A stretch of 64,000 nucleotides of DNA from Octopus vulgaris (Eukaryota): NCBI GenBank assembly GCA_951406725.2, contig OX597818.1:107942001-108006000 (forward strand), written 5' to 3'. Of this stretch, positions 14,024 through 59,546 are shown one piece after another. Both the position numbers and the translations under genes were made by a program. Position 1 is the first letter of the stretch; each line of letters starts with the position of its first letter. Under the pieces are notes generated by a model, which ran no database searches, was not told the DNA's origin, and saw nothing but the letters and a program-made list of their open reading frames with translations.

Positions 14024-14161
14024 ATTATTTACATTATTTACATTTGTCCTCATCTTGTTTGTTGTTAATACAACGTTTTGGCTGATATACCCTCCAGCTT
14101 TCATCAGGTGTCTTGGAGAAATTTTGAACCTGGGTTCTCATTCCTAAGGTATTTTTCGATG

Positions 14162-18795: not shown

Positions 18796-18955
18796 CAATA
18801 ATAACATCAAAAAATACCTTAGGAATGAGAGCCCAGGTTCGAAATTTCCCCAAGACACCTGATGAAGGCTGGAGGGTATATTAACTGAAATGTTGTGTTA
18901 ACAACAAACAAGATGAGGACAAATATCTGTCAAATGTAAATAATGTAAATAATAT
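18295..18955 (+). mobile_element. Composite tRNA head + (AAT)n + hammerhead element, copy 2 (unrelated approx. 200-bp segment at 18478-18682)
   Basis: GCGGGCTACTAACCCCAAGATTCCGAGTTCGATTCCAAGCAGTGACC, then (AAT)n, then CATCAAAAAATACCTTAGGAATGAGA...ACACCTGATGAAGGCTGG...GAAATGTTGTGTT; homologous to 14024-14372. Confidence 0.8.
18854..18899 (+). ncRNA. Minimal type I hammerhead, partly decayed
   Basis: Stem I gacac/gtgtt; CTGATGA 18859-18865; GAAA 18887-18890; TG TT (CG TT in copy 1). Confidence 0.7.
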
Positions 18956-31869: not shown

Positions 31870-32560
31870 TTAACACAGAGATGACCATGGACATAACTAT
31901 GGCTATTCCTTTGAACAACAAGCGAAGGGCAAACAACTTTGGATACAAAAGCTGTGCTGTAGGACCTTTGCAACCAAGACAGGCTTGAAGATACATCAGG
32001 GAAAGACTCGCAAGAAGAGGACAGAGCAGTGTGGATCATCTGATTGTAAAACACATGGCAAACAATCCCCAGACTCGAACCACAGCAGATTGATAAATGC
32101 TACAGCAAAGACTTTTTCTGAACAGGAAACTGCAAGTTATGAGACTGGTGCATCAGATAGTACTCGGATGAAACCAAAGGTTCTGTGGCCTGCTGCAAAT
32201 GAGAAAGGAAGAAATGAAGAGTTTGAGAACAAGGTATGTTATGCTCTTTTAGAAAATGACAGGAACTACAGTGGAGAAACTGGAAAAGTTAGCAAGCTCA
32301 ATATATGATACAGGAAAGGCCCAACTCATCATAAAGCAAGTACCACTATGAGTGGTATCCAAACTACAGTGGAAAAGGTCAGCCGCTGGATTTGGTTGAA
32401 AAGAAATGATGAGCAATGGCTAGAAGAATATTGAGCTATATTTAATAACCAGTTGATCGAGCAAACAGGGTCTCATTTCAGTGACAGGTGCTGGCATGCA
32501 ATGATGCCATCAAGAGGTAGGCCCTGAAATGGCGTGCATTCTCTACTGATGACCCCATAC
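31870..32560 (+). mobile_element. HERO-like non-LTR retrotransposon, internally deleted (N-terminus joined to C-terminus and 3' UTR)
   Basis: CCRTFATKTGLKIHQGKTR (cf. C.CGK.CK..RGLKIHQ), KPKVLWPAANEK (cf. IKWP.AN), and VEKVSRWIWLKRNDEQW (cf. AEKASRWLW.KR...W). Confidence 0.7.
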
Positions 32561-44049: not shown

Positions 44050-44302
44050 GAGAAGAGGAGAAGACAGAGAGAGAGAGAGAGAGAGAAAGAGAGATAGAAG
44101 GAGGAGAAGACACAGAGAGAGAGACAGAAGGAGAGAAGATAGAGAGAGAGAGAGAAGGGGAGAAGATAGAGAGGTAGGTATGTGGGTAGGTAGGTAGATA
44201 GAGAGAGAGAGAGACAGTGAGAGAGAGAGAGAGAGAGAGAGGAGGAGAAGATAGAGAGAGAGACAGAAGGGGAGAAGATAGAGAGGTAGGTATGTAGGTA
44301 GG

Positions 44303-44335
<33 letters not shown>

Positions 44336-45525
44336 AAAGAGAGATAGAAGGAGGAAAAGACAGAGAGAGAGAGAGAGAGACATAAGGAGAGAAGATAGAG
44401 AGAGAGAGAAGGGGAGAAGATAGAGAGGTAGGTATGTAGGTAGGTAGGTAGATATATAGATAGATAGACAGATAGAGAGAGAGAGAGAAGGAAGAGAAGA
44501 CAGAGAGAGAGAGACAGAAGGGGAGAAGATAGAGATGTAGGTATGTAGGTAGGTAGATAGATACATAGATAGATAGATAGAGAGAGAGAGACAGACAGAC
44601 AAACAGAAAGGGGAGAAGATAGAGAGGCAGGTAGATAGATAGACAGATAGAGAGAGAGAGAGGGAGAGAAAGAGATAGAGAGACAGAAGGGGGAGAAGAT
44701 AGAGAGGTAGGTAGATAGATAGACAGATAGAGAGAGAAAGAGAATGGTATTGAGGTGACAGAAGAAAAGACAAAAGAGTAAAAAGAGAGAGAGGGGAGAT
44801 TGATAGAGAGAAAGAGAAAGAGAGACAGAGGATGGGAGAAGATAGAGGGTAGGTAGATAGAGGGACAGATAGATAGAGAAAGAGAGAGTGTGAGAGAGAG
44901 AATGGGATTGGGTTGACAGATGGAAGAAAAAACAGGAGTAAATAGAGAGAGAGGGGGGAAGATAGATAGATGAATAGAGAGAGGAAGAGGAAGGGAGAGA
45001 GAGAGGAAGAGTAAGAGAGAGAGAGAGAGAGGAAGAGAAAGAGAAAGAGAAAAGGGAGAAAGAGAGAGATTGAGAAGAGAAGGGGAGAAGATAGATAGAG
45101 AGAGAAAGAGAAAGTGTGAGAGAGAGAGAAACATATACAGAGAACAAAGGTGGAAGACACAGGGAGAGAGAGAGAGAGAGAGAGAAAGGGGGAAAGAGAA
45201 AAAGAGAGAGAGAAAGAGAAATTGACAGATAGAAAGAAAATGAGACAGGGAGAGGAAGATAGAAAGACAGATATATAGAGATGAAAATAGAGAGAGTGAG
45301 AGAGATAAAGAGAATGGAACTGAGTTGACAAACAGAAAAGATGAAAGAGTAAATAGAGAGAGAGACAGAGAGAGACAGAGAGAGAGAGAGGGACAGAGAG
45401 AGACAGACAGGGAGAGAGAGACAAAGTGAAAGAGACAGGCAGAGACAGACAGAGAGACGGAGACAGAGAGAGAGAGACAGAGAGAGAGACAGAGAGAGAC
45501 AGAGAGAGAGAGACAGACAGACAGG
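44050..45525 (+). repeat. Approx. 1.5-kb polypurine compound minisatellite (GA/GATA/GGTA/GACA)
   Basis: Recurrent unit GAGACAGAAGGGGAGAAGATAGAGAGGTAGGTATGTAGGTAGGTAGATAGATAG; source of the 388-525 aa SL-rich pseudo-ORFs. Confidence 0.95.
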
Positions 45526-46427: not shown

Positions 46428-46645
46428 CATCGATGTTTCAAGTTTCTGTCTTTTGTCAATGAGATGTACCTAAGAGAGAGAACTCTGAATGAACTTATTT
46501 GCTCCGATCAGATGACCTACTAACACAAATATGTCAACATATTGACTGAGTTATATATAAAGTTACAGCTTTATTAAGTTCATTCAGAGTTGTCTCTCTT
46601 AGGAACATCTCATTGACAAGAGTCAAAAAACTCAAAACATCAATG
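46428..46645. mobile_element. Small foldback / MITE-like element (arms approx. 70 bp)
   Basis: TTGTCAATGAGATGTACCTAAGAGAGAGAACTCTGAATGAACTTA vs TAAGTTCATTCAGAGTTGTCTCTCTTAGGAACATCTCATTGACAA. Confidence 0.8.
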
Positions 46646-46659
46646 CATTTGTATATATA

Positions 46660-46710
<51 letters not shown>

Positions 46711-46961
46711 GTGTGAAAAGTTGGATATTAATTTAATAATACCATCAATTTAACACCAAGTGGCTTAGCGCATAAAAACCCAAGGATACAATAAAAATTT
46801 ATATACACATATATAAGAGAGTGACCACTATATGGTCGACTCTAGCGCTAAAAATAGATCCGCTATGGTATTAGCCACTAAAAAATTGTTTCCAAGGAAA
46901 GTCAGCTCAACATTTAACATAAATGGGCAGGGCATATGAAAAATAACAAAAAATATAGATT

Positions 46962-47037
46962 AACTCTAGACAATTGTTTCGCTATTAATGTATATGCAAT
47001 TTTACTTACACAACATCCATAGGTCATCAGCAGAATT
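46962..47037 (-). ncRNA. Type I hammerhead ribozyme motif
   Basis: Minus strand: aattctg CTGATGA cctat...atagc GAAA caatt GTC tagagtt. Confidence 0.75.
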
Positions 47038-47513
47038 TGTCTAGAATACAATTTATTAAACCGCACACTGAATTTTAACACAACGTCAAACACACGTGTG
47101 GTTCAATCGATTATATTCGAAGTTATGATTCAAACTCCCTCGCTTAAAGCGCGCTAAAGACTTCCGGAAACAAATACTGCATAAAAGATTTACTGCAGTA
47201 TAATTAAAATCAAAAAATAAGGGTGAAAAGTTGGATATTAATTTAATAATACCATCAATTTAACACCAAGTGACTTAGCGCATAAAAACCAGGGATACAA
47301 TAAAAATTTATATTCACATATATAAGAGAGTGACCACTATATGGTCGAATCTAGTGCTAAAAGTAGATCCGCTATGGTATTTGTTTCTGGAAGTCTTTAG
47401 CGTGCTTTTAGCGAGGGAGTTTGAATCATAACTTCAAATATAATCGATTAAACCACACGTGTGTTTGACGTGTTAAAATTCAGCGTGCGGTTTGATAAAT
47501 TGTATTCTAGACA

Positions 47514-47589
47514 AATTCTGCTGATGACCTATGGATGTTGTGTAAGTAAAATTGCATATACATTAATAGTGAAACAATTGTCCAGAGTT
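47514..47589 (+). ncRNA. Type I hammerhead ribozyme motif
   Basis: Stem I aattctg/cagagtt (7 bp, 1 GU); CTGATGA 47521-47527; long stem II (ctat/atag, gatgt/acatt, tgtgtaa/ttgcata); GAAA 47571-47574; palindromic stem III ACAATTGT; GUC 47580-47582. Confidence 0.8.
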
Positions 47590-47749
47590 AATCTATATAT
47601 TTTGTTATTTTTCATATGCCCTGCCCATTTATGTTAAATGTTGAGCTGACTTTCCTTGGAAACAATTTTTTAGTGGCTAATACCATAGCAGATCTATTTT
47701 TAGCGCTAGAGTCGACCATATAGTGGTCACTCTCTTATATATGTGTGTA

Positions 47750-47789
<40 letters not shown>

Positions 47790-47834
47790 TATGTATATAT
47801 ATGCATATATATATATATTTCCATATAAATACAT

Positions 47835-47890
<56 letters not shown>

Positions 47891-48456: not shown

Positions 48457-49040
48457 GGGTGCGATGGGTAAATTGTCACCATTTCATATTTTGAATTTTA
48501 CACATGCACAATGTTTGTTTTTGATTTTGTCAACTACACAGTACGCTAGTGAGATAAACAGCATCATGATGCAATTAATTCTGCCAGATATTTGGAAACA
48601 ACATACAGTACTGTTTGTCATTCATGCCAGAAGCTCCAATAGAAACAGATAGGGAACAGTCTGAACAACCGTTGGCTTGCTGTGTCCCCAAAACATGTGA
48701 TAAAAATCAAACATTCAATCAACATCATGGTGTTTGGAGCGATCACTAATGATGGCAATGTTATGCCTTCATTCATCTTTCCACATGGCCTCAGACTCAA
48801 CATCATGTACCTTGTGGAGGTAGTGCTGTCTTGGATCAAGAGGGTAGTTGCAGGGAGACCCTGTGTCTGGCAACAGGACTCTGCATCATGCCACACAAGC
48901 AGGAGAACCCAGTCATGGCTGTCAGACAATTTCTGTGATCACATCACCCCTAAAATGTGACTAACTAACCCCCCCAGACTGCAACCCACCTTGATTATTA
49001 TGTGTGGGGCACAGTTGAGCAAGAGACCAACTGTACCTCA
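48457..49040 (+). mobile_element. Internally deleted DD37D (maT-type) transposon relic, retaining the 5' end
   Basis: MMQLILPDIWKQHTVLFVI; IMVFGAITNDGNVMPSFIFPHGLRLN; WQQDSASCHTSRRTQSWLSDNFCDHITPKM*...PDCNP.DYYVWG, with 37 residues between the second and third catalytic D in the reconstructed frame. Confidence 0.88.
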
Positions 49041-55860: not shown

Positions 55861-58709
55861 TCCCTTCCTTCTAATGGCTAATAATTAAATATTTTTCGTC
55901 TTATACTGGTGCCCTTCATATTTAGAGTTAGGAACAGACTTGAATGTCTTCCATAAGAACAGAGTCAAGTATTTCTCTGTTGTATTTCTCAATGCTTTTA
56001 ATTCAGGATTCTTTGAAATGGACCATTTATTTCTTACTGGTATCGGTCATTAGAATTTGATCATGTTTTGGCTTTTTAATCTCCTGTACTTATTTCAGTT
56101 TAATACATGTTCTGGAGATCTCTGGTTCTAGTCCTTGAATGGCTAATTCCCTTTTCAAAAACATATACAATACCATGCACACACGCATACACACATGTAT
56201 GTGCACAAGTGTGTATGTGTGTTTGTGCATATGTGTGTCTGTGTGGACATAAACTGGCTTCTACAATTTCCATCAACTGAATAACAATTTAGATCTTTCT
56301 TTCAATGAGTATTTATTAACTCTAAATGCAGTTACTTCCATTGTAACTCAAGAAAGTTGAACACTTAGTTTAGTTATAATAATAATGCCATTAATATAAA
56401 CTTACAGCTTTCACCAACTGAATATTCACCGGCCTTTAAACCACTGCATCACTTCTTCCTCGCATACCTGTGTGCAGTAGCTTTATCTTGAAGTATCCAT
56501 TCTCCCTATAAATTTGCTATTTTCTTCATATCTTAAAGAGCTAAATCATTCCTGCTCCACTTTCTTGAAGTCATAGGTGTCAGTTCTTTTAGACATCAAA
56601 GGTGATAACAACACTTCCAGCCTACATAATAGTACATAGTGCTTTTATCTAAGAATATCCATTCCTCTCAAGGTGTAATCTTCAACATAGCTCGAGGTCA
56701 ACTTATCCTTGATGTAGCTGAAAGTCATAATAGAAGTCTATGAAAGTTAAATCAAATGGGATTTTAATATACAGATCACATTAATAGTGAATTGATGTAA
56801 AAAGGAATACCATTAGTTAATACTTTTACACTCTCATACAAAGTATAACATTTACTTACAGATTGTACATGCTGTGAGTACAATTCTTGACAAATAGGCA
56901 AGCTTGAAGCATAAGCTATGCAGATACACGAAAACACAAACAAGAGTAAATTACACAAAGAAGAGGGAAAAGCTTTGGGGGTTGGGCAATGAGGGGAAGA
57001 AGTAATTCAGTATGATATATTTGGACATAGAGCCAGGAAAAATTACTTTAAACTGGAAGCTATCTAATTAAAATACACTAAGAATGTCAAGAGAGAATTT
57101 AGTACCATGTAAACAATGAACCAGTCTGAAATACTGGCCATAAATCAGTGGGTTTCTCAAGGGAAAAACCATCAGATAATTCTTCAATCTTACCACTTTT
57201 ACAAATACAGAAATACTAATATTTCATACCTTGTTTTTGGGGGAAAGTTAAAATAATCAAAAGAAGAGAAAAAGAAAATAGATTTTACCTTAATTCTTTT
57301 TTTTTTCATAAGAACTGTAATTTGATTTAGTTTTAAGATAACATTTGAAATGTTTTTTTGAAATTTATTTTTTTTTTTACTGTTTGAAAATGTAATTCAT
57401 TTAAAAAATATTTATTATAAAAATGGAACTGAGAATAAAAATGCAAAATATCAAAGAATAAAAAAAACAGCATGATTATTTCTTAATGAAGCAAGAAGAC
57501 GAAAATGAGTGATTCCTGATAGAGAGAAAATGAATTGGTTCACCATTGTTAAGAGAACATTAACAGAACGATTGCTCATCAATGTCATGAATCTGAAAGA
57601 TAAACAATCCTGACTGAACACAGAACTATGATCAAAGTCATTCCAGCCATGACCATTCCATCATTTTTATATCAGGAACTCCATTGCTTGAATGAATCTT
57701 TCTTCTTTTCTAACTTTTCAGAATTCAAAATGTCCTTTTCTGGCCCAAATATCCTACCTGACCAGATCAGCTCTCTCACACCTACCTTACAATGCCATTT
57801 TAAAAATATGCAAACACACCATCAAAATCTCAGTTATGAGATAATGCATAATTATTTCAAAACACTGTGAGTAAATGATGTGATTACAGTTGAGAGAATA
57901 ATCGGAATGGTAAAAGGTTAAAATAGTAAGGGATGGTCACTGGAAAGAGGCTGCCTTGTTGGGTTGTGGATATTAATGTAGTTATGTAGCCCCAGGCCAG
58001 TCTTGACCAAGCATCCTACATCACACAACTAGTTGTCTTATGGCCTGCAGTTAGTTGTTGTGGGTCACTTTACATCGTCCTTCACCAAGTAGGGTTAATC
58101 TACAGGCTGTCTGTTTTATTTCAGTTACACCATGACACCATTTATCTGCAAACCATCACTGTTCACTCTGATATGCAGTGATGGTTGTATGCAATGTAGT
58201 TTGGACAGCTACGTTAAACTGCAATTTCTTCACTGTTCAACACTGATATGACATATTTTAGTGGTGGCCACACCAGAGATAAACAAAATGGACATGCTCA
58301 AAATGCCGCAGTTGCTGTTCCTTGTATCATGTTATTTCTCTGCTCAGAATTTAAAGTTAATTTAAAGAGCATTGATGTTAAAGCTATTTCTTTTGTATGT
58401 GTTTTTTTTTAAGTTTGTCCCAGTTGAGTAGAAAAGACAGTAATTTTAGAATGCTGTTGTAGCCATCCACAGTGTTGTAAATGGACGTCAGTGTTGAAGG
58501 ATATTTCATGGAGGCACAGATCTTGTTGAGATTTGAAGCTTGTTGTTACAACAATTTGTCCTTCTTGTATGTCTTTTAGATCTGGTTTTTTTTTTTTTTA
58601 TATATTTCATAATGTATATTGTCTGTGGTTGTCGTCTGTGTCCACCTTGTAAGGATGGTAAATGTTCTGGTTTTGTTTACTTTATCGATTATTATTGCTT
58701 GTTCTAGAG

Positions 58710-59546
58710 CAAGGGTGTCAAACTCATTGTAGTTCATGGGCCACATATCAACCCAATTTGATCTCAAGCCAGCTGGACCAGTAAAATCCTGGTGTAAGAA
58801 CCTATAAATAACAATTTCAAAATGTTCCCTTTGTTTTAGTGTAAAAACGTACATTCTGAAAACGTTCATTTTTAAAGAACAATTTTTTTGTTTTTTGCAA
58901 AACACTGAACAAGTGAAAGTAGGAACTGTTATAGAAGACTGACTTATCTACCTCGTAAATGTATACAATTTATAAATGGAAAACAAAAGACACTTTGAAA
59001 ATAATTTAAAAACACTTATTTTTTTATCATTTATTTTCAATATGTTCCTGAAACTTGGTATCTTTTCTCCTTCACAAGTGCATCAATATCAGGCATCAAA
59101 TCTTGAGTAGCAGCCAATTTCAGGATGTAAATACACCAAACACACGGGTTTCCCATTCACCTCCACAAATAAATAGGAAAAGGGACCACTTTTCTTGAAA
59201 TAATCTACACTCTGTATCCACTTTCCTCTTTTTTGACAAAGATATTTTGGGTAAAACAGAGTGAAATGTTGACCTAAAAGAAAAAAAGAAAACACATTGT
59301 TAGTCTTTGAATTAATTTCAAAAAAATATATTTATTCCAATAAAATATTGAAACAAGTCTTTAAATAATTTAAGGGAGTTTTTTTTCCATTAGAAATGGA
59401 ATCATTGACATTATCATCAGTCATATTCCAACAATCATCATTCACAATAACAAGTAAGTAAATACGTATAGAATATAATTTTTACACTTTTCAACGTCAT
59501 CTCATGGGCTGGTTCTAGCTCATGGGCTGTATGTTTGATAACCCTG
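58710..59546. mobile_element. hAT (Charlie-type) non-autonomous element, 837 bp
   Basis: TIRs CAAGGGTGTCAAAC / GTTTGATAACCCTG; perfect 8-bp TSD TTCTAGAG at 58702-58709 and 59547-59554 (NTCTAGAN target is typical of Charlie elements). Confidence 0.92.

Follow-up and report, generated by a model that had tools for sequence, protein, structure and literature searches.

Organization of the locus

The window, meaning the whole 64-kb stretch of DNA that was analysed, contains a locus in which a 510-bp unit is followed by a 167-bp partial copy and then by an inverted arm of 370-384 bp, with (TA)n on both sides. The full monomer (46705..47214) is non-coding, has a GC content of 32% and carries its hammerhead-sense strand on the minus strand, with a putative 3' end at 46705. 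The partial upstream copy (47215..47381, minus strand) corresponds to unit positions 1-168, is the equivalent of a pseudo-LTR and contains no hammerhead. Its identity to the unit is 95%, with 7 substitutions in 167 columns and one gap (4.2% divergence). The third segment (47377..47746, plus strand) is an inverted, 5'-truncated copy of 370 bp, which runs from unit position 473 (at 47377) to unit position 101 (at 47746), head to head with the direct arm, and shows a weak TA-rich extension to about 47760. It differs from the unit by 12 substitutions in 371 columns (3.2%), ten being transitions and six lying at CpG, and by a 3-nt deletion. When the monomer (46705-47214) was compared with the 64-kb window by BLAST, the matches were itself, the direct copy at 47215-47381 and a single inverted copy; no further copies of the 510-bp unit were detected elsewhere in the window.

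At the inversion junction a GTATT microhomology (47377..47381) was found, which equals unit positions 164-168 and is also the reverse complement of unit positions 469-473. The chance of a microhomology of at least 5 nt at this junction was estimated from base composition as about 0.7%. As read from the hammerheads, the sense strand of the direct arm is minus and that of the inverted arm is plus, so the arms stand head to head, and both 3' ends lie in (TA)n. The left (TA)n array (46652..46709, of which 46652..46704 is outside the unit) adjoins the 3' end of the direct arm and is the likely target site, and the right (TA)n-rich array (47753..47890) adjoins the 3' end of the inverted arm. Read along the sense strand, the inverted 5'-truncated copy comes first, followed by the partial copy and then by the full unit. 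A one-sided extension of about 99 nt (the "tail", 46705..46803, minus strand) is present at the left end and missing from the inverted arm; we infer that it lies between two reverse-transcription start sites. The 510-bp unit, the 167-bp partial copy, the switch at GTATT and the (TA)n setting had been described in the original prediction, and all were borne out by BLAST and the array coordinates, with the inverted arm measuring 370-384 bp where approx. 380 bp had been given.

The coding capacity of the element was negligible. In the six frames of the circularised 510-bp unit, the longest stop-free stretch was 62 codons and the longest one starting from Met was 37. An AUG is located at the start of hammerhead stem II, but it is followed by a stop after 4 codons. 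No long ORF and no RT or GIY-YIG ORF was found in the element, and the search of 14 chosen ORFs out of the 66 in the window against Pfam gave no match and no Penelope coding remnant. A tRNA-derived SINE was also considered and rejected, as no tRNA (ARAGORN), no A box and no Pol III promoter were detected, and just one-mismatch B-box-like words were present.

Some further features were observed around and within the insertion. A 23-nt TA-rich word occurs only at 46650-46672 and 47792-47814, one on each side, and would be a possible target duplication; it was not counted as such, the word being of low complexity and TA runs lying between it and the element. Directly left of the bordering (TA)n there is an imperfect, MITE-like inverted repeat of about 220 bp (46428-46645, 75% self-complementary), with no second copy in the window. 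Short inverted repeats within the monomer (46886-46893 with 47166-47173, and 46737-46745 with 46865-46873) coincide with, or lie close to, the two sides of the inversion junction, and the structure of the RNA or cDNA may determine where copying stalls or switches around unit positions 160-168.

Other features of the window

A second, unrelated repeat of about 140 bp is present in two copies (18806-18950, plus strand, and 14024-14160, minus strand) which are 88% alike, each directly after an (AAT)n array. Both contain a minimal hammerhead-like motif (CUGAUGA, short stem II, GAAA) that looks degenerate and fails the core-plus-helices descriptor used below. These repeats are likely the ends of another Penelope-type family.

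A transposase-like ORF relic (48643-48960, plus strand), which we take to be Tc1/mariner, had no Pfam match, and the only named relative among its five matches was an uncharacterised protein of Octopus bimaculoides (64% identity). A non-repetitive open stretch of 123 codons (58576-58947, minus strand) is possibly a host exon; it had no Pfam match and no longer relatives were found. Another of 144 codons (31874-32308, plus strand) displays a C2H2-like motif, had no Pfam match and presumably resembles the N-terminus of a LINE protein. A purine-only (GA/GATA)n array of 1.5 kb (44050-45521) shows a 142-bp higher-order period.

Hammerhead motifs and predicted folding

Each arm carries one type I hammerhead. 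In the direct arm it spans 46962..47037 on the minus strand (C3 at 47030, C17 at 46969, 10.1 = C at 47023, 11.1 = C at 46981), with a predicted GUC cut between 46969 and 46968. Its position 1.1 is U, and a competing 9-bp helix masks the cut site in the fold prediction. In the inverted arm it spans 47514..47589 on the plus strand (C3 at 47521, C17 at 47582), the predicted cut follows 47582 and stems I and II are predicted at a probability of 0.89-0.99. Both motifs consist of a 7-bp stem I, CUGAUGA, 43 nt of long stem II, GAAA and the GUC site, and in both stem III is the palindrome ACAAUUGU. The 10.1:11.1 pair is C:C in the direct arm and C:U in the inverted arm. The spans and strands of the two motifs, the palindromic stem III and the long stem II had been predicted, and a stem I of 7 bp gives the same spans.

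A core-plus-helices descriptor found exactly two sites in the 64 kb, namely the two arms. The same descriptor matched in 2 of 200 shuffled windows and in none of 5,000 shuffled monomers. Rfam gave no hammerhead family, neither at the gathering score nor at E ≤ 10; its 33 weak matches were situated on or beside TA arrays and chiefly involved microRNA models.

In the folding analysis of the monomer, the active fold was 3-7 kcal/mol above the minimum, as calculated without tertiary contacts. Two copies co-folded, likewise without tertiary contacts, had as their minimum a double hammerhead in which the core is open and stem III forms between the molecules over 8 bp; its energy lies 4-5 kcal/mol below that of two monomers. 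This predicted minimum corresponds to the dimer mode of cleavage described for metazoan type I motifs (PMC4209133, PMC6765202). The circularised monomer is predicted to be 67% paired and folds better than its shuffles (z = -5.8, 40 shuffles). Since the antisense circle folds as well (z = -7.2), the hammerhead strand cannot be told from its complement by the folding score.

In the descriptor scan each strand of the locus held one sense motif, as the original prediction had stated. This means that no monomer could be released by double cleavage in cis. The other structural claim, a duplex of about 380 bp in the transcript, was supported at 370 bp in the fold prediction: such a duplex would form were the whole locus transcribed, and 84-85% of the bases in the whole-locus transcript are predicted to be paired. 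Given one sense hammerhead per strand and the long inverted repeat, the locus is likely a dead-end copy.

A multi-copy family in sequencing runs

Seven runs, from four studies and with three organism labels, contained 28-60% of the sampled words. Contigs from 4 of the 24 runs in the list (X1, X2, X19 and X20) were aligned to the monomer alone, and 11 runs with a small share of the words were left aside. X1 is the best-matching run and maybe the source sample of the window itself, and the family argument is carried without it by X2, X19 and X20. No matching run is recorded as RNA; X19 and X20 are presumed to be RNA by guess only, and their contigs are read as the sequence of other copies, not as expression. 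The number of contigs that matched the monomer was 455, 657, 83 and 15 in X1, X2, X19 and X20, respectively, most of them 90-99% alike or less; the contigs are short, none spanning the whole unit. The question whether the monomer might be single-copy was thus answered, with 15-657 contigs per run indicating a multi-copy family.

The head-to-tail junction recurs in diverged contigs, from 47208 back to 46705 in X1 and from 47190 to 46737 in X19. Among the loose ends listed, those that X1 and X2 show before 46724 also look junction-like by eye. Because this junction recurs, a genuine element is more likely than a chance truncation, and the non-coding unit of 510 nt is probably that element. Other strand-switch joints were observed at 46780/46864 (X2) and 46780/46869 (X20), and one side of each lies 3-8 nt from the switch point of this locus (46872 equivalent). 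In nine X1 contigs, (TA)n loose ends were found before 46800, near the end point of the right arm. The inversion junction of this locus was itself absent among the joints listed for the four runs and is therefore without independent read support.

The depth of the first and last bins of the unit, which adjoin in a circle, was 9,707 and 267 in X1, 57,702 and 3,677 in X2, 388 and 18 in X19, and 110 and 1.1 in X20. Cover was therefore polar in all four runs, about 16- to 100-fold higher in the first bin, as judged from summed contig depth, which is a weak measure and gives no copy number. The steep one-ended fall hints at fixed reverse-transcription starts with 5' truncation, which it fits better than random circular permutation. 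Alternatively, the first 170 bp could be common to more abundant relatives, which would raise the cover there. The circularly permuted start points that had been anticipated for the monomer received less support from this contrast in depth between the two bins.

Variation within the family was taken from 40 of 86 variant rows. U10.1 accounted for 36-39% and U11.1 for 46% of the family depth in X1 and X2. A compensatory change in stem I (47032 A>T and 46967 T>A) has each of its halves represented in the family, unphased. One further G>C and one further G>T place in each of three runs could represent a subfamily with a canonical G10.1-C11.1 or U-A pair. Such 10.1:11.1 variants may, reportedly, already be described in a paper on dimer-cleaving Penelope hammerhead variants. 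The mismatches proposed for the two arms were confirmed as C:C and C:U. Simple damage, which may lower activity, is a less supported explanation for them, because U10.1 and U11.1 are common family alleles and the axolotl motif HHR_Amex2, with U.U at the base of helix II, is described as still cleaving, best as a dimer (PMC7229834).

A pattern scan of metagenome contigs returned one locus (L001), a chance 22-nt match with no similarity beyond it. There were no matches in viral contigs with two patterns and none in genome contigs. These scans of metagenome, viral and genome contigs found neither an autonomous partner nor pseudo-LTR homology.

Divergence of the arms and probable single origin

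In order to compare the arms with the family, 16 variable family positions were picked from the 40 variant rows listed. At the 13 positions that it covers, the inverted arm has the letter of the unit at nine, the other allele of the family at three and a deletion at one. Rare alleles at 46919, 46926 and 47135 are common to both arms, the other allele making up 94-100% of the family depth there. As judged from these sequence comparisons, one template followed by later neutral decay explains best both the divergence of the arms and their common rare alleles. The arm divergence of 3-4%, mostly by transitions, together with the common rare alleles thus suggests that the locus is one aged insertion and not an assembly artefact.

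Comparison with known elements

Animal non-LTR retrozymes likewise have a non-coding, low-GC monomer with a type I hammerhead and a short palindromic stem III (Cervera and de la Pena 2020, PMC7229834; Li, Clavereau and Pollet 2026, bioRxiv 10.64898/2026.07.22.740005). The head-to-tail junction, the many dispersed copies and a proposed mobilisation by Penelope are also described for them. The monomer of 510 nt is longer than the 150-450 bp given in PMC7229834 and lies inside the 51-972 bp of the 2026 preprint. The stem II region measures 43 nt, compared with about 4 bp in canonical type I motifs. At this locus the direct units amount to 1.33 and carry one hammerhead, and an inverted arm is added to them; the word "inverted" is absent from the main text of PMC7229834. 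Circles and cleavage are described for such retrozymes; for the present element the evidence is sequence and fold prediction. The preprint reserves the term "active" for two or more units in succession that each contain a complete hammerhead; at this locus one hammerhead per strand was found.

Endonuclease-bearing Penelope-like elements (Neptune, Hydra, Penelope/Poseidon) likewise combine a partial tandem, an inverted 5'-truncated head, a tail at one end and a (TA)n target (PMC8557442, PMC11167929, PMC4209133). In the published layout, partial tandems go with a truncated copy lying inverted at the 5' end and with a tail of 30-40 bp at one end, and (TA)n targets are reported in Naiad and Hydra (PMC8557442). 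This layout matches the partial tandem and inverted truncated copies that had been named as Penelope hallmarks. Their hammerhead is similarly described near the 3' end, upstream of the presumed priming sites, Naiad being without hammerheads unlike Neptune, Hydra and Penelope/Poseidon. The present element differs in that it has no RT or GIY-YIG ORF, its tail is about 99 nt compared with the usual 30-40 (PMC8557442) and its cut site lies 165 and 264 nt upstream of the two putative starts. The minimal Penelope hammerhead is described with a bulged base after position 9 and a conserved G10.1-C11.1 (PMC4209133), a pattern that is lacking here (C:C, C:U). Chlamys elements such as MRC1 of Chlamydomonas are also non-coding and of the Penelope type, with pseudo-LTRs and head-to-tail insertions. 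They are green-algal, mostly without canonical hammerheads and tied to autonomous families by 3' similarity (PMC8557442).

The Poseidon protein is reported to cut and extend both target strands in vitro and to start from two sites inside the RNA, which mark the limits of the tail (PMC11167929). Poseidon is described as the sole Penelope-like element reconstituted in vitro, and its insertion has no need for hammerhead cleavage. By analogy, the label "ribozyme-processed", which had been applied to the present element, is less supported. Penelope families have been reported in octopus genomes (PMC8967140). Together with the Octopus bimaculoides relative of the neighbouring transposase-like ORF, this makes an octopus the probable host.

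Origin of the insertion

The structure is fairly probably a partial tandem plus inverted copy of a hammerhead-bearing unit from a multi-copy family, likely made in one event by the RT/endonuclease of a TA-targeting Penelope-like element acting in trans. Mobilisation by a Penelope-like element appears likely by analogy in insertion geometry. That this is a non-coding, hammerhead-bearing mobile element with Penelope-type geometry had been predicted, and it is well supported by the anatomy, the lack of ORFs and the multi-copy family. The earlier choice between a retrozyme and a Penelope pLTR holds in so far as both fit. They need not be framed as alternatives, since animal retrozymes have been proposed to be non-autonomous Penelope derivatives (Li, Clavereau and Pollet 2026, bioRxiv 10.64898/2026.07.22.740005). 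As the locus falls outside the definition of "active" in that preprint and is not autonomous, it is therefore called a retrozyme-like non-autonomous Penelope-type insertion.

In the proposed mechanism, a source locus with tandem units would be transcribed into RNA longer than one unit, in the form of a linear multimer or of a circle that is closed once the double hammerhead has cleaved. The partner enzyme would nick both strands at a (TA)n site. One nick would prime at unit position 1, copying 1.33 units, and the other at about unit position 100, copying 370 nt. The two cDNA ends would then anneal via GTATT, generating a head-to-head insert with the tail on one side, and the three segments would drift apart afterwards, partly through CpG decay. 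The same sequence would result from twin priming and from the first cDNA folding back and being copied, and the two cannot be told apart from it.

A more far-reaching version, which we put forward tentatively, is a live octopus family. It would be a 510-nt retrozyme that cleaves as a dimer only, its 43-nt stem II being closed by a pyrimidine-pyrimidine pair, and that forms a circular RNA. A TA-targeting Penelope-like element would act on this RNA in trans, copying it from two fixed starts about 100 nt apart, one per target strand. If this were true, such loci would be direct insertion-level proof of retrozyme mobilisation by Penelope enzymes via twin priming. In that case the origin of tails and inverted heads could be dissected with the monomer, which would serve as a compact natural substrate.

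It is unlikely that the three segments are instead the 5'-truncated ends (pseudo-LTR region) of a coding Penelope-like element, the 510 bp marking the reach of one cDNA. The geometry would be the same, a steep 3'-to-5' fall of cover is expected from it, and most Penelope insertions are described as 5'-truncated (PMC8557442, PMC8969392). The AUG at the start of stem II also recalls Poseidon of Anolis (PMC11167929), yet here the stop comes after 4 codons. A chance truncation would, however, be private to the locus, whereas the 510/1 junction is seen again in X1 and X19, in contigs that have diverged, and among the loose ends of X1 and X2, and no stop-free stretch exceeds 62 codons.

A classical retrozyme, which would depend on an abundant circular RNA of 510 nt, cut and rejoined at the GUC site, as the obligatory template for rolling reverse transcription from arbitrary starts, seems quite unlikely. 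It would account for the type I hammerhead, the palindromic stem III, the low GC content, the greater-than-unit copy from one template and the predicted self-paired circle, and such circles have been shown in coral, mussel and axolotl (PMC7229834). Arbitrary starts are difficult to reconcile with the unequal depth of the first and last bins in all four runs, though these adjoin in a circle, or with direct units amounting to 1.33 only. Furthermore, uncleaved RNA is described as the main substrate in Poseidon (PMC11167929).

A rearrangement of a single older copy at the DNA level, by replication template switching or repair and with no RNA step, is considered very unlikely. The microhomology junction, the common rare alleles and the similar divergence of the two copies (4.2% and 3.2%) fit any single event, this one included. 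In contrast, the tandem junction is a feature of the family, and inversion joints close to this position are present in other copies. Moreover, (TA)n abuts both outer ends, and no host flank is duplicated in the arms.

Finally, an inverted arm produced by assembly or library artefact is extremely improbable: although the junction is absent among the joints listed and such structures are reported to trouble assemblies (PMC8557442), neither form fits, since a fold-back chimera of one molecule would yield identical arms, not 12 substitutions (10 transitions, 6 at CpG) and an indel, and a mis-join of random family members would not share rare alleles.

Significance of the finding

Judged by titles and abstracts, the papers found on octopus hammerheads or retrozymes and on cephalopod non-autonomous Penelope elements described no such family, which may nevertheless be present in Repbase or Dfam. 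What sets the retrozyme-like non-autonomous Penelope-type insertion apart is its long tail, a long stem II that is closed by two pyrimidines, and a retrozyme-like unit that bears the complete set of Penelope hallmarks. No new mechanism and no host function are indicated. The mobilisation of animal retrozymes by Penelope has been argued in print from co-occurrence and pseudo-LTR similarity. To this the locus adds insertion-level evidence, as a retrozyme-like monomer here combines a partial tandem, an inverted head, a one-sided tail and a (TA)n target within 1 kb. Its hammerhead is moreover a natural variant available for assay, and such elements would be extended to cephalopods.
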